From: Minisyncoccota bacterium
GTDB taxonomy: Bacteria > Patescibacteriota > Minisyncoccia > UBA6257 > 2-01-FULL-56-20
Length of the DNA stretch: 64,000 nt
NCBI GenBank assembly: GCA_035509435.1
Contig: DATJLR010000007.1
Location: 1,555-65,554, forward strand
Reading direction: 5' to 3'
Position 1 is the first letter of the stretch, and every line of letters begins with the position of its first letter. The translations under genes were made by a program, and so were the position numbers. Under the pieces are notes generated by a model. The model was not told the DNA's origin and searched no databases. It was given only the letters and a program-made list of their open reading frames with translations. Positions 9,945 through 52,814 of this stretch are shown piece by piece.

Positions 9945-11732
9945 ATGGCAACCGAACACTCGCCGGAGAAGATCGACCATATCCGCCACTCGCTCGCGCA
10001 CCTGCTCGCGGCAGCGGTGCTCAAAGAATTCCCTGACGCCAAGCTCGGCGTGGGGCCCGCCGTGGAGAACGGCTTCTATTATGACTTTCTGCTCCCCCGC
10101 CCCGTCACGCCGGACGACCTGAAGGTGCTCGAGAAGACGATGCGCTCGTTCGTCAATAAAAAGCTGGCATTCACCGGCCGCGAGGTCACGCCCGCGGAGG
10201 CAAAAAAGCTTTTTGCGCATCAGCCATTTAAGCTGGATCTAATAAACGACTTTGCGGCCGACGGAAAGACGCTGACCGTGTATGAAACGGGTGCGCCAGA
10301 AACCAGTTCCCAGAAACCAGTTACTGTTTTTATGGATCTCTGCCGCGGCGGCCACGTGGAGAACACATCGGAAATTCCCGCGGACGCTTTTACGCTCGAT
10401 AAGATCGCGGGCGCGTACTGGAAGGGCGACGAAAAGAACCAGCAGCTCCAGCGCATCTACGGCCTCGCGTTCGGGAGCAAGGCCGCGTTAAAAGAATATG
10501 AAAAAATGATGGAAGAAGCCAAGAAGCGCGACCATCGCAAGCTTGGCAAGGAACTTCAGCTCTTCGCGATCATCGATGAGATCGGACCGGGCCTTCCGCT
10601 CTTTTATCCGAAAGGAACCATCCTGCGCCGCACGCTGGAAAATTACATTACCGAGCTGCAGGAACGCCGCGGCTACGTGCCGATCTGGATCCCCCACATC
10701 ACGAAGGGCGAGCTGTATAAGATCTCCGGACACCTCGACAAATATGACGCGATGTATCCGCCGATGGAGCTCAAGGACGAGGCGAACTATTACCTCAAGC
10801 CGATGAACTGCCCGCACTTCATGATGCTCTATAAGACACTGCCGCATTCATACCGGGAGCTGCCGGTGCGCTATGTCTGCACGACCACCAATTACCGCTA
10901 CGAAAAGTCCGGCGAACTTTCCGGTCTTACGCGCGTGCGCGCGCTCACGCAGGATGACTGCCACGTGTTCGCGCGCCCGGACCAGATCAAGCAGGAGATC
11001 AATCTGATGCTCGACATGGTCGCCGAGATATACCGGACGTTCGGCTTTGATGATTTCTGGGTGCGCATCTCGACACACGATCCCGCCAATAAGGAAAAAT
11101 ACATCGGCAACCAGAATGTCTGGGCCGATTCAGAGGCGGCGCTCACCGACCTCATAAAGGACCGCGGATGGAAGTATGATATCGGCGTGGGCGAGGCGGC
11201 ATTCTACGGCCCAAAGCTCGACTTTATATTCAAAGATGTCATCGGCCGTGATTGGCAGCTCTCCACCATACAGCTCGACATGAACCTCCCCCAACGGTTC
11301 GAGCTTGAATATATAGATGAAAGTTCTTCAAAGCAGCGCCCGGTGGTGATCCATCGCGCGATCCTCGGATCGACCGAGCGGTTCCTCGGCATCCTCATCG
11401 AGCACTTCGCCGGCAAATTCCCCGTCTGGCTCTCCCCCGTGCAAGTAGCGGTCCTTCCTGTCAGCGAAAAATTCTCCGATTATGGGAAAAAGGTTTTTGA
11501 TGAGCTTGCCGCCGCCGGCATACGCGCCGAGCTCGCGGCCGCGAACGAGTCGCTCGGCAAACGCATCCGCGAAGCGGAACTGATGAAGGTCCCCTACGTG
11601 CTCGTCGTCGGGGAGAAAGAAGAGGGCGGCGGCTCCGTGAACGTCCGCGACCGCAAGGGCGAGGAGCGCGAAATGCCGCTCAAAGAGTTCCTGAAGCATA
11701 TCAGCGCGGAGATAAAAGAAAAAGCGCTGTAA
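9945..11732 (+). CDS. thrS: Threonyl-tRNA synthetase (short form lacking N-terminal TGS domains)
   Basis: Likely true start MATEHSPEKIDHIRHSLAHLLAAAVL at 9945, in frame within the 9525 track ORF. Motifs DLCRGGHV, HRAILGS, C-terminal anticodon-binding domain. Confidence 0.9.
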   Translation: MATEHSPEKIDHIRHSLAHLLAAAVLKEFPDAKLGVGPAVENGFYYDFLLPRPVTPDDLKVLEKTMRSFVNKKLAFTGREVTPAEAKKLFAHQPFKLDLINDFAADGKTLTVYETGAPETSSQKPVTVFMDLCRGGHVENTSEIPADAFTLDKIAGAYWKGDEKNQQLQRIYGLAFGSKAALKEYEKMMEEAKKRDHRKLGKELQLFAIIDEIGPGLPLFYPKGTILRRTLENYITELQERRGYVPIWIPHITKGELYKISGHLDKYDAMYPPMELKDEANYYLKPMNCPHFMMLYKTLPHSYRELPVRYVCTTTNYRYEKSGELSGLTRVRALTQDDCHVFARPDQIKQEINLMLDMVAEIYRTFGFDDFWVRISTHDPANKEKYIGNQNVWADSEAALTDLIKDRGWKYDIGVGEAAFYGPKLDFIFKDVIGRDWQLSTIQLDMNLPQRFELEYIDESSSKQRPVVIHRAILGSTERFLGILIEHFAGKFPVWLSPVQVAVLPVSEKFSDYGKKVFDELAAAGIRAELAAANESLGKRIREAELMKVPYVLVVGEKEEGGGSVNVRDRKGEEREMPLKEFLKHISAEIKEKAL

Positions 11733-20319: not shown

Positions 20320-20394
20320 GGGCTGGTGGTGAAATGGTATCACAGCCTTCTTGCCAGATGGCAGTTCGGGGTTCGATTCTCCGCCAGTCCACCA
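20320..20394 (+). tRNA. tRNA-like gene, Gly(GCC)-like anticodon loop, encoded 3' CCA, irregular anticodon stem
   Basis: Acceptor GGGCTGG/CCAGTCC (one G-U), D arm GTGA-AATGGTA-TCAC, T arm CGGGG-TTCGATT-CTCCG, discriminator A then CCA. The anticodon region GCCTTCTTGCCAGATGGC has loop TTGCCAG (anticodon GCC), but the stem pairs only as G-C, C-G, C-G, TxT, T-A with an 8-nt loop. Confidence 0.55.
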
Positions 20395-20971: not shown

Positions 20972-21036
20972 AGTTCCAGATTGTAGCCGAACCGGCTCTA
21001 AAAGTCCAGCCGGTCCCGGCTACCAGTTTCTCGTTA

Positions 21037-27774
<6,738 letters not shown>

Positions 27775-32499: not shown

Positions 32500-33268
32500 C
32501 AATTTCTTCTTCTATCGCCATTACTGGCGGGTTGGACTATACCACCATCTCCACTGAGATGATCGACGTGTTAGTCCGGCATGATTGCCGGACTCCAGCT
32601 CGTAATGAGCTAAGTCTCTAAGGGGTCAATGCATGATATTTCCGCTTTTTTGAATAATTCAGAAAGCGAAAACGTTCTACTAATTCTGCCAACGCTCGAA
32701 AATCATCTTTACTTTGAATTTTCGATTTAGCATCGAGGATTTGGACCATCAGATCGGCTTGCTCACCTTTCAGTATCAGGAACCCACGAACTTCGCCGAG
32801 AAACGATCTGATCGCCTCTTCGCGCGCGATGGTATATTCGATCATGCCATCATTGCGTTCGCGGATATATCCCAAGTTAATAAGCGAACAAATTTCTTCA
32901 AATTTGCGCTGATCTTTTTTGGATTGGAAAAGCACGATGCAAGGAGCTATTTGAAATCCATATCGATAAGTCGAGTTAGATTTCATCCTTACATAGATAC
33001 TCCCATCTCCATCCAGAAATCCTGCTATGTATGCTTTTTGCGTTGACGAAAGACTTTTCATACACGACTTCCCTCGGTATTATCCTACGATCTCACGTCT
33101 CATCAAACTAGTTTTTAATCTATTTTTAATAAGCGTTACGATACATCCCAGGTCAGGATGTTAGGACTTCACCGATATGAGTCGATTTTGCTATCTCGAT
33201 CGCTCGAGAAAGCCGCCGTTTTTGTTTTAACAGTTTTTGATGTACCTTCGATCGGGTTATCTTCGTTG
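32500..33268 (-). mobile_element. Group I intron at 23S position equivalent to E. coli U2593 (I-CreI site)
   Basis: 5' exon ends ...GGGTTCAGACCGT and 3' exon resumes CGTGAGACAGGTCGG. The intron begins CAACGAAG and ends ...AATTG (omega-G). It is ~770 nt and includes a LAGLIDADG ORF. Confidence 0.75.
32618..33061 (-). CDS. LAGLIDADG homing endonuclease (single-motif, I-CreI-like)
   Basis: 147 aa; IAGFLDGDGSIYV motif; encoded inside the 2593 intron. Confidence 0.85.
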   Translation of the reverse strand: MKSLSSTQKAYIAGFLDGDGSIYVRMKSNSTYRYGFQIAPCIVLFQSKKDQRKFEEICSLINLGYIRERNDGMIEYTIAREEAIRSFLGEVRGFLILKGEQADLMVQILDAKSKIQSKDDFRALAELVERFRFLNYSKKRKYHALTP

Positions 33269-34269
33269 ACGGTCTGAACCCAGCTCACGTGCCACTTTAA
33301 TTGGCGAACAGCCAAACGCTTGGGAGCTTCTACACCCCCGCGCTGTGGCGAGCCGACATCGAGGTGCCGAGCATTGTCGTCGCTAGGGACGCTCGGACAA
33401 TACTAGCCTGTTATCCCCGGAGTAGCTTTTATCCGGTGTCTCCGGCCTTTCTATTAAGAAGCCGTCGGGTCACTAACTTCTGCTTTCGCACCTGCTCGTC
33501 TTGTATGACTCGCAGTCAAGCCAGCTTTTGCGTTTGCACGTCCTGCCCGATTTCCATCCGGGCTAAGCTAACCTTAATAAACTCCTCCGTTACTCTTTTG
33601 GAGGAAAACGCCCCATTTAAACTGCCTACCAAGCACTGTCTTAGCGGAGTTTCCCCGAAGGGTTCTCCGCCAGTTAGACGTCAAAATTCTGAAAATGGCT
33701 GTTTCATTGTCGGATCCACGTCACCCGAAAGCGACGCTTCAAATCCTCGCCACTACACTACGTAACAGAACTCTGAAATCAATACCAAGCTGCAGTAAAG
33801 CTTCCGGGGTCTTTTCGTCCCGCTGCAGGTATCCCGCGTCTTCACGGGAATCGCATTTTCACCGAGCTCATCGTTGAGACAGTTCTCCGGTCGTTACACC
33901 TTTCGTGCGCTTCGGAACTTACCCGAAAAGGAATTGCGCTCAAACATGTTACAACACTTTTTGTTGGCCAAAACATTTCTGCTTGGCTCTCTGTGTCGCC
34001 ACAGAGTTCGGACTATATCTTATCGCCTTGCGGCGATCCTAACGTGTAGTCTCTGAGGATCCTTCAAAAGAAGTTTCCTGCTGATTTTCCGCATCGATCA
34101 AAGATTGTTACCTTGCGGTACTTTGATATGCGCGGGTGTTCCAGCATATAGTTAGGTTTTACTAAGGCAATGCAATCACCTTAGAACGATTCTTTTACGT
34201 TATCACCCGCTCGTTTTTTAATTTAAGCGGGATCCTCATGGTCGCCCATGAGATCGGACTATATCATCT

Positions 34270-34827
34270 CTAAAAACTTTTAGAGTCTGGCGTATAGTCT
34301 CTGAGGATTCCTTGATAGTCTATTTCTACGTCTATTACGTTGTATTTACGCCTTCTTCCTCTTCCCTCATTTAAATTTTCCCTGATAGCGATAATTTCTT
34401 GCAGTCCTTTTGGATCAAGGTGTTTGCCTTGCTCCATAAGAAATGCAATTTGTTTGAACAGGAGAAAATTTTTCTTTTTTGATGAAGAAAAGAAAGGAAA
34501 CTTTTCGAAAAACGGTATGACGCGATCAATGATCGAACGATAATCGCCGACGACGAAGTAATGCACTCCGTCTTCACGATTTTGCAATCGTCCGCAACCT
34601 AAATGACTTTTTAATAATTCCAAATTGGCGATATCGCGCTGGGCCACGTTAAAGGTCATTTGCACCTGCCATCCAAGGCGATGCCCATTCCCTTTTCGAA
34701 GAGAGACATTAAAACTTCCCTCTCCATCCGTAAAACCAGAAAGATACCAGCCAATGTTGTCTGGAATTTTCTCAAGCCATTCACGGTTATACCAAGGCCT
34801 TTCCTGCTGATTGTCTGCACCGATCAT
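34270..34827 (-). CDS. LAGLIDADG homing endonuclease (single-motif)
   Basis: 185 aa; LSGFTDGEGSFNVS motif. Confidence 0.85.
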   Translation of the reverse strand: MIGADNQQERPWYNREWLEKIPDNIGWYLSGFTDGEGSFNVSLRKGNGHRLGWQVQMTFNVAQRDIANLELLKSHLGCGRLQNREDGVHYFVVGDYRSIIDRVIPFFEKFPFFSSSKKKNFLLFKQIAFLMEQGKHLDPKGLQEIIAIRENLNEGRGRRRKYNVIDVEIDYQGILRDYTPDSKSF

Positions 34828-34991
34828 ATTGTCACGCTAGCACATCAACATTAAATCTTTATTAAAAAGATTTCATGATGAGCAACGTAATGTCGGATTC
34901 TCAGAGTTTCCAGCATTTGGCCAGATTTTATAACTACAATCGTTATGTCTATAGTTATCGCTGACATTGACGAGGGCTTGAATCAGTGAGC

Positions 34992-35080
34992 CTCCTGGTA
35001 ACTAATTGCTAGTAACTCGGTAACCTAGCAAGAAAAATCTTGCTAGTTACCAAGGTTTACTAGTAACCAGTGACCAGGAG
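34992..35080. repeat. Imperfect ~40-bp-stem hairpin built from GTTAC(C/T)AG / CTAGTAAC words at the 5' edge of the domain-IV insertion (replaces the helix-68-like hairpin)
   Basis: ctcctggtaactaattgctagtaactcggtaacctagcaag-aaaaatc-ttgctagttaccaaggtttactagtaaccagtgaccaggag. Confidence 0.7.
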
Positions 35081-35723
35081 ACCCCCAATCTTGACCTTCT
35101 CGCATCGGTCAGGTGTCACCCCCTATACATCCTGTTGCCAGTTAGCAGGGAGCTGTGTTTTTGGTAAACAGTCGCCAGAGATTCTTTAGCTGCGGCCCCG
35201 CCCGCATTGCTGCGGAAAGGGCAGGCCTTATTGCTAACTTACGGCCGCTATTTTGCCTAGTTCCTTAACGATGAATCACTCGTTCCCCTTGGGCTACTCG
35301 CCCTATACACCAGTGTCGGTTTCCGGTACGGAGACCACACGCTCGATTTGGCCAAATTTTTCTCGAACGGCTCTTCACAAACGTCGGCCAGGTAAATTCC
35401 TGACCTTCTCTCGGCGCGCGCTTGAACTCCGCGCAAAGAATGCCAAACCGATAAGGCACGCCTGCTTATATCCGTTGTCCTTTGGTTATGATCGTGCGGC
35501 CGGGCTGGAATATTAACCAGCTTCCCATCGACTGCCCCTTTCGGGATCGCCTTAGGACCGCCTAACCCGTGGTTGATTGCCAGTGCCACGGAAACCTTGT
35601 ATTTTCGGGGTTCCAATTTCTCATTGGGATTGTGGTTACTCATTCCAACATTTTCTCTTCCGGCCGCTCCAAACGCCCTCGCGGGTCGATCTTCACTGCA
35701 GGCCGAAATGCTCTCCTACCACT

Positions 35724-35762
35724 ACTGGTAACTGATTACTAGTTGCTAGTAAACCTAGTAGA
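35724..35762. repeat. IVS 3'-flank motif block, complementary to 36163..36204 (RNase III-type stem of the 23S IVS)
   Basis: ctggtaactgattactagttgctagtaaacctagtag; reverse complement of the 5'-flank block is ctggtaactgattactggtaactaggaactagtaacaag. Confidence 0.7.
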
Positions 35763-36113
35763 TTTTTCAATGCTTTTTGTAAGATTGGTCAATTCTTTGC
35801 CGACGATCGCGTATTGCTCGGAAAGGAATTTGTATTGTTCATCGGAAAGTAACTCCACTTTCCGCATGAATTCAAGATTGAACGCTATTTCATCCGCTGA
35901 TCCCAAGGAATCTTTCAGATGATTGATCGTGTCCTTCTTTGATTTCTTCCGTGCGAACCCTTCCGCGATGTTTGAGGGAATTGAACGTGAGGCCCGCCGT
36001 ATTTGATCGGCAAGCTCCAGTTTATATTCCTTCGGCAATGAAAGAGATATTTTATGAACCTTTATTGCAAGTTCGAACGATCTTTTGAACACATCAAGAT
36101 CTTTGTATATCAT
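35739..36113 (-). CDS. 23S rRNA intervening-sequence protein (four-helix-bundle, TIGR02436-like)
   Basis: 124 aa; FELAIKVHKISLSLPKEYKLELADQIRRASRSIPSNIAEGFARK. Sits at a helix-45-like position (~E. coli 1170-1200) flanked by complementary motif blocks. Confidence 0.8.
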   Translation of the reverse strand: MIYKDLDVFKRSFELAIKVHKISLSLPKEYKLELADQIRRASRSIPSNIAEGFARKKSKKDTINHLKDSLGSADEIAFNLEFMRKVELLSDEQYKFLSEQYAIVGKELTNLTKSIEKSTRFTSN

Positions 36114-36162
36114 CCTTCCATTGAACCATTTCTCGCATTAACTCTTTCTTAAATCTTTTCCT

Positions 36163-36204
36163 TGTTACTAGTTCCTAGTTACCAGTAATCAGTTACCAGT
36201 AATC
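36163..36204. repeat. IVS 5'-flank motif block (partner of 35724..35762)
   Basis: cttgttactagttcctagttaccagtaatcagttaccagtaatccg. Confidence 0.7.
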
Positions 36205-37050
36205 CGTATCTTCGGTACCATGCTTAGCCCCGGTACATTTTCGGCGCCACGACCCGTCGAATAGTGAGTTGTTACACACTCTTTAAAGGATGGCTACCTC
36301 TAAGCCAACCTCCTATCTGTCTATGGGTCATGACTACCTTTTACACTTAGCATGGATTTAGGGACCTTAGATGACGATCTGGGCTCTTCCCCTCGCGACC
36401 ACGGAGCTTAGCCCCCGCAGTCTAACTAGCAAGATCTTGACTCTCGGTATTCGGAGTTTGATTGATCGTTCGGTCTTTCGACCTGTAACGATCATCCAGT
36501 GCTCTACCCCCAAGAGGAACTCTTGCCGCCAGTCCTAAAACTGTTTCGGAGAGAACCAGCTATTACGTTATTCGATTAGCTTTTCACTCCTTACCTCAGC
36601 TCATCCGAAGATTTTGAACAATCAACCGGTTCGGGCCTCCCTCCCGATTTCTCGGGAGTTCACCCTGGCCAAGGCAAGCTCATAACGCTTCGGGTCTATC
36701 TTGTGCTGCGATCCCACTCAAATTTTTGGAGCCGTGACAAATCCACGGCGATGCGGTATTTTTATGATTAGCTTCTCCTCCACGGGAGGCCGTATGTTCT
36801 CAGGACACAGCCCCGATCCCATGCTTCAGGGCCTCACTTCCTTTCTCATGGAAGCAAACCCGATTGCCTGGGGAGTGCTTGCCGTCGGTGTCGCATTGCT
36901 TATCGTGGCCATTTGGAGCATGCACCACGAAAACAAAACCCCGACCTGCAAGTGACCAATCTGCCAAAACACCTGCCCGCTCACGCGCGCGGGTGTTTTC
37001 TTTTGGCGCTCACGCGCCGCTTATTTCTCCAAAAATTTGAGTGGGATGTG

Positions 37051-37081
<31 letters not shown>

Positions 37082-37244
37082 TCACGCTATGCGCGCTTAG
37101 ACAAGCAACACAAAATAAGTCGTTGGATCATTCTTCAATAGGCACATTGTTCCACTCGTCCGCGGATTGCTCCGCAGCCGTTCGTGGTTCAATTCCTTGT
37201 AGACAAACGGTTTCAGGTTCTATTTCAACGGCCTCACCGGCCTG

Positions 37245-37281
<37 letters not shown>

Positions 37282-38230
37282 ATCTAGAAAAGTATTTAGC
37301 CTTACCTGATAGTACAGGTGTATTCCTCCGGAACTGTTTTACTCCGAAGTACTCAAGTTAAAAAACTAAGGAGACCAAAAGTTTTCGTCTACGGGGCTAT
37401 CACCCGCTCTGGCGCCGCTTTCCAGACGGCTTCGACTAACCAATGATTTTTTTACTCCTCCACCTCCCAGCGAGTAACGCAACGTACACTTGCGTGCGCG
37501 CTACGTTACTTGCTAAAAGAGCGTTTTTTACTGAACCCCAAGATCGTGATAAATCACAACCTTAGTTTGGGCTCCTCCCCGTTCTCTCGCCGATACTTAG
37601 GGAATAACTGATTTGTTCTATTTTCCTCCGCTTACTGGAATGTTTTACTTCAGCGGGTACGCGATCCGCTTGCGCGGAACAATTGAGGGTTACTCAACTA
37701 GGTTTCCCCATTCGGAAATTCCCGGATCACAGGTTGCTACGCACCTCCCCGAGACATATCGTTGCTACGCCACGTCCTTCATCGCCTTTTCTAGTCTAGG
37801 CATCCACCGTTCGCCCTTATTTGCCAACCATCCCAATGCTGACTTGCTCGTGGATCACAGCGAAACGCCGCAATCCACTTGCCATCAGTAAGAAAAATTC
37901 TTACCGATGCTTTGACCCTGTCCGTCACGAGAAATTGACTACATATGCGTATGCAGCGATCCGGCCCACCCGCAATGCGGATGTTAGCGACCGGACCTAA
38001 TAGTGACACAGGGTCTCCATATTATGTCCTCCGACTCTACAATTCGGAGTTCCGCCAAATCGGCGAATGATTTGAAATAGCATTTGCTCAGCATCGCGAG
38101 ACGCTGCAAGACACGGACCGCCAAGAAAAAAATCAGCCGCACACAGCGGCCGCTGACTGCTTCAAAGAAGCGGCTTCAGCCGGAGTGTTGTGAGAGATTT
38201 AAAGTCTTGACCATTCGTATCTTGAGGATA

Positions 38231-52778: not shown

Positions 52779-52814
52779 CAAGAAACTATTTACCAGAAAC
52801 TAATTACCAGTACG

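Follow-up and report, generated by a model that had tools for sequence, protein, structure and literature searches.

An in-frame heptamer repeat array in an insertion-tolerant hairpin turn of a Paceibacterota threonyl-tRNA synthetase

The threonine--tRNA ligase gene (thrS) in a 64,000-nucleotide stretch of a Minisyncoccota bacterium genome (contig DATJLR010000007.1 of assembly GCA_035509435.1; this whole stretch is referred to as the window) carries within its coding sequence a short array of seven-nucleotide repeats. The array is free of stop codons, is read in frame and falls in a hairpin turn of the enzyme (ThrS) that tolerates insertions, and it is probably passenger DNA that serves no function. 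Because the hairpin carries unrelated inserts across the lineage, extra residues at this position are ordinary for Paceibacterota, in which the hairpin is an insertion hot spot. What is unusual is the inserted DNA, which belongs to a dispersed family of heptamer repeats with members at other sites of this genome and in distant phyla. The hairpin before the editing-site cysteine is thus a permissive insertion site in bacteria of the candidate phyla radiation (CPR), and the added residues derive from repeat DNA rather than from adaptive design of a loop. More widely, a single heptamer family connects loop inserts of essential proteins with intergenic spacers and with the stems of 23S rRNA intervening sequences (IVSs). 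The relevant features of thrS, in window coordinates, are these.

9945..11732, plus strand: thrS, threonine--tRNA ligase, 595 aa (open reading frame (ORF) and translation).
9987..10001, plus strand: editing-site HxxxH, H15/H19 (E. coli H73, H77), invariant (alignment to S. aureus ThrRS).
10293..10328, plus strand: the 12 codons singled out by the original prediction, APETSSQKPVTV (alignment of the 120 closest Paceibacterota ThrS, 64-86% identical, and relatives' DNA).
10296..10323, plus strand: heptamer array CCAGAAA-CCAGTTC-CCAGAAA-CCAGTTA, a 14-nt period twice over, forming the core of the insert (Tandem Repeats Finder (TRF); CCAGNNNCCAGNNNCCAG pattern).
10335..10355, plus strand: editing-site motif D131-L-C133-R-G-G-H137 (E. 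coli D180...C182...H186), in invariant columns (1QF6/1TJE residues 178-186).

The 36 bases at 10293-10328 read GCGCCAGAAACCAGTTCCCAGAAACCAGTTACTGTT (GCG CCA GAA ACC AGT TCC CAG AAA CCA GTT ACT GTT) and are translated in frame as APETSSQKPVTV between ...LTVYETG and FMDLCRGGHV; the sequence and its translation confirm the position given by the original prediction. The same prediction described the segment as a tandem of a 13-nt word, and the 13-mer CCAGAAACCAGTT does occur twice, at 10296 and 10310, forming a perfect tandem at 10296-10322 with a 14-nt period (TRF: period 14, 1.9 copies, 100% match). The true unit, however, consists of two heptamers, CCAGAAA and CCAGTT(C/A), which together make up each 14-mer, and the array spans 27-28 nt. 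What had been taken for a discrete 36-nt motif unit is therefore a short run of 7-nt repeats on which a 14-nt super-period is superimposed. Since 14 cannot be divided by 3, the second copy is not read in the frame of the first, and the two give PETS and QKPV in turn. The pattern CCAGNNNCCAGNNNCCAG, for which 0.15 occurrences are expected, was found at the thrS array, and the observed number of near-matches to the 13-mer was reached in none of 100 dinucleotide shuffles; these shuffle controls exclude a chance origin of the tandem. The fused rpoBC gene has further near-matches to the 13-mer, at 24303, 24522 and 25885; these were rejected as family members, being conserved RpoB/RpoC residues (KPETINY, SQKPLVT) and a matter of codon choice. 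The codon usage of the insert is foreign: GC content at third codon positions is 33%, compared with 74% for the whole of thrS, and the codon score ranks in the bottom 0.5% among 12-codon windows taken from nine large genes. Folding revealed no RNA structure for the insert (z = +0.25 and +0.62).

A single 14-nt duplication was rejected as the whole origin of the insert, since deleting one copy shifts the frame. Thus, the extra DNA would have entered either as a 30-nt block at once or by two compensated events. The most plausible source may be slippage during replication, or a switch of template to a heptamer array at another site, and CCAG...CCAG(T/A)T words in an ancestral A-P-x-x-x-P-V/I loop could have served as the seed. 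Under this proposal an array whose coding strand reads YCAGWWA (opposite strand TAACTGR/TTTCTGG) came to lie in an editing-domain hairpin turn that tolerates inserts across Paceibacterota, where it is translated to a hydrophilic extension of 10-11 residues, rich in P, T, S and Q, presumably neutral and most likely without a function of its own. The forward orientation is open in all frames and the reverse contains TAA, which accounts for the orientation seen in every in-frame case. The tandem is also a liability, since the copy number of a 14-nt repeat in an essential gene can change only by frameshifting; the essentiality of thrS argues against adaptive switching at a phase-variable contingency locus.

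The protein is a class II ThrRS with an N2 editing domain, having the HxxxH and CxxxH motifs, tRNA_SAD, the class II core and the anticodon-binding domain (1NYQ, 1QF6); its Pfam domains are tRNA_SAD, tRNA-synt_2b and HGTP_anticodon. It is a 100% match to an annotated 'Candidatus Paceibacterota' (CPR/Patescibacteria) protein from a metagenome-assembled genome (MAG), on a contig of 459,847 bp, and its cluster contains a single member. Alignment to S. aureus ThrRS residues 63-640 shows that the N-terminal TGS/N1 domain is missing and that the editing (N2) domain comes first, and this short form (~570-610 aa) is shared by all 120 relatives. The start of the protein lies ~10 residues ahead of the HxxxH editing motif (window 9945-10001). 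H15, H19, D131, C133 and H137 are invariant in an alignment of 71 sequences; in ThrRS, His73, Gly95 and Cys182 are given as invariant and catalytic (PMC7302879). The D131-L-C133-R-G-G-H137 motif begins 7 nt 3' of the end of the 36-nt segment at 10328. With E. coli ThrRS (1QF6/1TJE) the alignment begins at Y178-V-D-M-C182, matching F128-M-D-L-C133 of the window protein, and S. aureus ThrRS (1NYQ) shows an 11-residue gap facing the insert. None of the solved structures compared (1NYQ, 1QF6, 1TJE) has residues equivalent to it, which bears out the claim that the segment is absent from E. coli-type enzymes. An AlphaFold2 (AF2) model built from the 71-sequence alignment (mean predicted local distance difference test score, pLDDT, 89.7) shows the insert flanked by strands 110-116 and 127-132, with pLDDT locally down to 76-85. 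The surface loop that structure mapping had been proposed to look for is accordingly predicted by the model to be an extension of a surface beta-hairpin turn beside the proofreading site.

The common state of this hairpin in the 120 ThrS is Y-x-T-G-D/E-V/I-F-x-DLCRGGH, like that of E. coli-type enzymes, and some 15 different, mutually unrelated inserts occur at exactly this turn, among them APGEAPI, AAPSAEGGNAEAPI, DENPEKST, SHQSSKNHNLRSKTY, SPQTTNHKHQTY, KAINAKYQIPDTKY and one of 25 residues. The multiple alignment called for by the original prediction found the window's insert conserved in none of the 120, among which it is unique. That prediction had named a lineage-wide loop of unrelated nucleotide sequence as the finding that would speak against it, and this describes half of what is seen: the insertion site is lineage-wide and holds unrelated inserts, but this particular insert has no counterpart. 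The nearest relative (86% identity) has GGC GAT ATC TTT at the site, and relatives at 82-84% identity have GCG CCG GGC GAG GCG CCG ATC (APGEAPI). Accordingly, the segment does read as exactly 12 codons, but the net gain is 30 nt (10 codons) compared with the insert-free TG-D-V/I-F and 15 nt (5 codons) compared with APGEAPI; relative to TG-D-V/I-F the extra residues lie at ~10293-10325, with APETSSQKPVT in place of D. A neighbour-joining tree leaves the ancestral loop state ambiguous. Of the 12 codons, the last, GTT (V), is probably ancestral, and the first, GCG (A), matches the APGEAPI loop only if that loop is the ancestral state, which is itself ambiguous.

The APGEAP(I/V) loop of ThrS in two related genomes (L004 and L078) is itself a 12-nt direct repeat (GCGCCGG GCGAA GCGCCGG), which suggests that the hairpin turn grows by local duplication in several lineages. 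In the closest syntenic genome, L078, identity to the window is 86-93% for LepA, PMT, SerS, GatB, L11, SSB, S6 and RpoBC, whereas ThrS (9223-10992, against window 9945-11729) is only 70% identical. This discrepancy implies that, in one of the two lineages, a divergent allele took the place of the resident thrS without a change of locus, and the L078 gene was rejected as the pre-insertion allele on account of that divergence.

That the loop might be a selected protein feature, tuning editing, the handling of the tRNA acceptor end or a partner contact in a ThrS that lacks N1/TGS, is very unlikely. The insert abuts the strand leading to D131/C133/H137, the hairpin has been enlarged independently in many lineages, and the AF2 confidence is intermediate rather than that of a disordered segment, all of which would suit such a role. 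However, the inserts of relatives resemble one another neither in sequence nor in length or charge, TG-D-V/I-F suffices for the enzymes of the closest relatives, the residues are dictated by a DNA repeat read in two frames, and the codon usage is, as noted, at the low extreme for large genes of this genome.

The same repeat family occurs at about seven sites in the 64-kb window. Every period-14 TRF array in it is of the YCAGWWA/TAACTGR type (in ThrS, in an arm of the 23S rRNA IVS and in the gatC-gatA spacer), and clusters of WWAC[CT]AG words are also found at a LepA loop, at the 3' end of rpoBC, in an ORF-less 23S hairpin and in both IVS arms. No heptamer clusters were found in the syntenic DNA of L078, L002 and L006. 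The sites other than thrS are listed here.

1885..1960, minus strand: LepA loop VTRDLELVTGNARNKLLETSR, built of heptamers, with two adjacent 13-mer near-matches at the same 14-nt spacing as in ThrS.
21019..21057, minus strand: fused rpoBC gene, remodelled at its 3' end (...AVLETSS*), and 18 nt downstream, with AACTAGT/AACTGGT words and a hairpin (z = -3.7).
34988..35088, minus strand: ORF-less heptamer hairpin of ~45 bp inside the 23S rRNA gene (minimum free energy -59.6 kcal/mol, z = -10.8).
35725..36208, minus strand: 23S rRNA IVS with a PF05635 four-helix-bundle ORF at 35739-36113 (Pfam PF05635, E = 1e-28; TRF).
52779..52814, plus strand: gatC-gatA spacer, array AGAAACTATTTACC-AGAAACTAATTACC-AG (TRF period 14, 2.1 copies, 52781-52810).

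In the LepA loop, reverse-type ACTGGTA... is followed by forward-type CCAGAAAC-AGTTACTAGAAACCAGT, and the loop carries CGCCAGAAACAAGTTACTAGAAACCAGT, which is ~26/30 identical to the ThrS array but is translated in a frame other than that of ThrS (NARNKLLETS). Compared with the solved structures of Aquifex and Thermus LepA, the loop has 12 extra residues, and among 120 relatives it is common to only one, P0125/L001 (86% identity). Its codon score is in the lowest 0.06% of windows, and its RNA forms a hairpin with z = -2.2. A systematic indel comparison showed that GAAACCAGT (ETS, 9 nt) is a window-specific gain in both LepA and ThrS. At the 3' end of rpoBC, relatives have ...EEEEAAVAAE* encoded by GC-rich DNA. 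In the IVS, read in the sense of its ORF, (TAACTGR)n precedes the gene and (YCAGTTA)n follows it; one arm, at 36177-36204, repeats a 14-nt unit perfectly in tandem (AGTTACCAGTAATC x2), and this unit is 12/14 identical to that of ThrS.

Some further observations concern the genes at these sites. The 23S rRNA gene (33157-37830, minus strand) is ~1750 nt longer than the Rfam model and also holds a group I intron (33989-34187) with a LAGLIDADG ORF (34270-34827). The whole 36-nt gatC-gatA spacer is heptamer array, and no obvious Shine-Dalgarno sequence precedes the GTG start of gatA. The rpoB and rpoC genes are fused in one ORF of 2245 aa (window 21037-27774, minus strand); the L006 equivalent of this fusion is 2251 aa long, with the Rpb2 and Rpb1 domains in one product.

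The search for the same unit elsewhere, which had also been suggested at the outset, gave three genomes with the exact unit and 68 metagenome contigs with sibling arrays. More specifically, a scan of species-representative genomes with CCAGAAACNAGTTNCNAGAAACNAGT returned 3 matches, compared with an estimated ~0.1 expected by chance, and all three carry the perfect unit CCAGAAACCAGTTA, in Patescibacteria, Bacteroidota (Lewinellaceae) and Omnitrophota. In the Patescibacteria MAG the exact tandem lies in frame in TsaD (Pfam TsaD confirmed), as LPETSYQKPVTS / ...LPETSYQKPVTSIQFPAIALLISGGHT... (PETSYQKPVTS). The Lewinellaceae genome has at least 4 copies of the CCAGAAACCAGTTA-type unit beside a gene start, and in the Omnitrophota genome atpA and atpG are separated by a hairpin of which the unit makes up an arm (z = -2.85). 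The 68 metagenome contigs were found with a looser pattern and hold arrays of TTACCAG, TAACCAG, TAATCAG, CAACCAG or AAACCAG, many of them inverted. Seven of the 68 arrays lie inside long ORFs, where the coding strand is always the CCAG strand; by reading of the translations, these ORFs include TrmD (LPVTSNQLPVTS), a RecG-like protein (LPATSYQQPVTSNQ) and ribosomal protein L10 (FTSNQLPVTS), as well as a glycosyltransferase, a 2045-aa protein and a Ser/Thr kinase. About 12 of the 68 are situated 0-25 codons upstream of the start codon of a long ORF. Viral contigs gave no matches to the array, and a phage BLAST search was empty, although its low-complexity filter may have masked the query. A protein search with three translated periods (PETSYQKPVTRNQL x3) found only 2 weak matches, which indicates that proteins rarely contain long arrays of the exact ThrS unit.

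Among published repeats, the nearest are the TAACTGA direct repeats described by MacGregor (2015) in Beggiatoaceae, Cyanobacteria and Bacteroidetes (PMC4679880). These repeats are mostly intergenic and near start codons; the few copies internal to ORFs are in the stop-free orientation, as TAACTGA gives stops in all frames one way and is open (LSVISYQ) the other (PMC4679880). TAACTGG (reverse PVTSYQL) is tabulated there as a related heptamer but is not repeated in the genome that MacGregor studied, and both horizontal spread and post-transcriptional regulation were suggested for the TAACTGA repeats (PMC4679880). Mrazek (2007), as quoted in the same paper, found heptanucleotides to be the commonest long simple repeats and polymerase slippage a possible source (PMC4679880).

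The thrS array and the TAACTGA repeats are both 7-nt tandem units with a patchy distribution over phyla (here Patescibacteria, Bacteroidota and Omnitrophota), arranged head to tail in at least two copies, of which thrS has four (CCAGN3CCAGN3CCAG). The restriction of ORF-internal copies to the stop-free orientation holds for ThrS, TsaD and the other in-frame cases, and the intergenic position upstream of starts recurs in the gatC-gatA spacer and in the ~12 metagenome loci. TCAGTTA is interleaved with CCAGTTA in the window IVS (TAATCAGTTACCAG), in L018 and in L063 (protein ...LSVISNQLPATSYQ...). By contrast, the thrS units are CCAGTTA (6/7 identical to TCAGTTA) and CCAGAAA (4/7), or TAACTGG/TTTCTGG in reverse, and the array has a 14-nt super-period, is found in a CPR host and lies in an internal loop of an essential synthetase, neither terminal in the protein nor in a hypothetical one. 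The thrS array is thus a sibling heptamer of the TAACTGA type and not the same repeat. A literature search for the exact thrS sequence returned unrelated polymerase chain reaction primers only.

Several of these observations weigh against the view that the array is functionless DNA derived from slippage or template switching. The same 14-nt unit in unrelated phyla, in the same frame in TsaD, is hard to obtain by independent slippage and hints at transfer or at a sequence-specific process. The protein search gave almost no long-array match to the exact unit, and the AAA-containing variant is rare. The LepA loop predates the split from L001 and yet keeps its rare codons, which could reflect constraint at the level of nucleic acid rather than neutrality. 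The insert ends close to the editing residues, 4 positions ahead of D131 and 6 ahead of the catalytic C133, and may affect editing. Finally, no relative above 86% identity was present in the databases searched, and neither the pre-insertion allele nor the event was observed.

Inverted heptamer arrays of the kind seen in the window IVS also flank PF05635 genes in L014, L018, L061 and L077, in the same layout; none of these four loci is in rRNA. Among 141 array-flanking ORFs, PF05635 and AAA_14 tie as the commonest Pfam families with 4 members each, and no transposase, reverse transcriptase or recombinase is enriched. Ten four-helix-bundle genes (L079-L088) from cyanobacterial and Azospirillum plasmids were then taken regardless of repeats, and most proved to be flanked by short (7-8 nt) tandem-repeat arms, clearly complementary in ~6-7. 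The arm unit differs by lineage (GGGGAGC-type, GGTGACA, GGACAGA, AAGGGAA and others), and two of the genes with heptamer arms, on Anabaena sp. 90 pANA02 (L084) and on a Pseudanabaena galeata plasmid (L085), lie between cas6 and cas4. This shows heptamers to be the usual building material of PF05635 hairpin cassettes, although mobility is not proven thereby. A literature search for PF05635 together with such repeats found nothing relevant.

The PF05635 cassettes raise the alternative that the thrS array is the product or footprint of active, sequence-specific insertion by a tiny mobile or templated element, kin to the heptamer-armed hairpins flanking these genes, that colonises rRNA, spacers and in-frame loops. 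Such insertion is unlikely. In its favour are an identical CCAGAAACCAGTTA unit in three unrelated phyla and the contrast between ~7 sites in 64 kb and none in the syntenic DNA of the closest relatives, and MacGregor too argued for horizontal spread. The gain of the same 9-nt GAAACCAGT in LepA and ThrS agrees with it as well, and so do the inverted arrays around PF05635 genes both in the window and, outside rRNA, in the four loci just named, the top rank shared by PF05635 and AAA_14, and the tandem arms at most of the ten unselected genes. On the other hand, no enzyme of transposition, reverse transcription or recombination is enriched beside the arrays, viral contigs lack them, and the ThrS array has neither an inverted partner nor predicted structure (z = +0.25). 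Moreover, target-site duplications and defined ends are absent, and array lengths vary continuously, as slippage predicts.

A more specific version is quite unlikely: that TAACTGR/YCAGWWA arrays, rather than being slippage products only, owe their placement or spread to a sequence-specific process linked with PF05635 (Avd-like, 23S-IVS) cassettes, which would be an unrecognised class of very small invasive elements crossing phyla, building rRNA IVS stems, filling spacers and entering thrS, lepA and tsaD (and, by reading of translations, trmD, rplJ and a recG-like gene) in frame. If the wider pattern of shared heptamers and of repeat arms around PF05635 genes holds, it may provide a concrete handle on the nature and cross-phylum spread of heptanucleotide repeats, and on the role of IVS/Avd-like proteins outside diversity-generating retroelements. 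One such retroelement (RVT_1, bAvd and a 459-aa ORF) is found near thrS in a relative, P0008 (ENA ERZ1426829), where its insertion separates the PMT gene from the FtsQ-like/SerS genes. At that position the window has no diversity-generating retroelement, and no reverse transcriptase was seen among the window ORFs inspected, though no dedicated scan of them was made.

The positions of sibling arrays just 5' of start codons, in the ~12 metagenome loci and in the gatC-gatA spacer, raise a further alternative, in which the array would be a cis-acting nucleic-acid element within the coding sequence, a putative site for a heptamer-recognising protein or RNA. MacGregor's proposal of post-transcriptional regulation points the same way, as do the rare codons that the LepA loop has kept over 14% protein divergence. 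This role is nevertheless highly improbable for thrS, where the site lies 350 nt inside the gene, has no structure and is conserved in no relative, and no candidate binding protein was identified.

An assembly or sequencing artefact of the MAG, or chance similarity, is scarcely credible. The source is a MAG and low-complexity repeats can be mis-assembled, but the insert keeps the reading frame and falls precisely on a hairpin known to be permissive, the same protein appears in NCBI, JGI and ENA, with the contig of 459,847 bp, and the same family recurs at other window sites and in independent assemblies. Chance is excluded by the shuffle controls.

The preferred reading, in which the array is a functionless passenger in a tolerant turn, finds parallels among other known systems. 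Ogata and colleagues are said to have described, in 2000, Rickettsia palindromic elements as selfish DNA in frame in protein-coding genes. These are palindromic elements of ~100-150 bp with a defined consensus. The ThrS insert resembles them as dispersed repeat DNA in frame in a conserved housekeeping protein, at a place where extra surface residues are tolerated; it differs in being a simple heptamer repeat of 28-30 nt without a hairpin, although the LepA copy is hairpin-like. The 23S rRNA IVS with its PF05635 ORF has arms made of the same heptamers as the ThrS insert, whereas the ThrS site has no ORF, inverted arm or rRNA context. As with the lineage-specific insertions of aminoacyl-tRNA synthetases, a loop insert occupies a permissive hairpin, here at the exact position used in many Paceibacterota lineages, but the DNA in ThrS traces back to a dispersed family of nucleotide repeats and not to loop drift of anonymous origin. 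A comparison with REP/REPIN-RAYT or IS200/IS605 systems found no transposase family among the top Pfams of the 141 array-flanking ORFs. Elsewhere in the window, and not reported by the Rfam tRNA model, ARAGORN places a tRNA-like gene of undetermined identity on the plus strand at 20320-20394, with a two-base 'anticodon' (gc).

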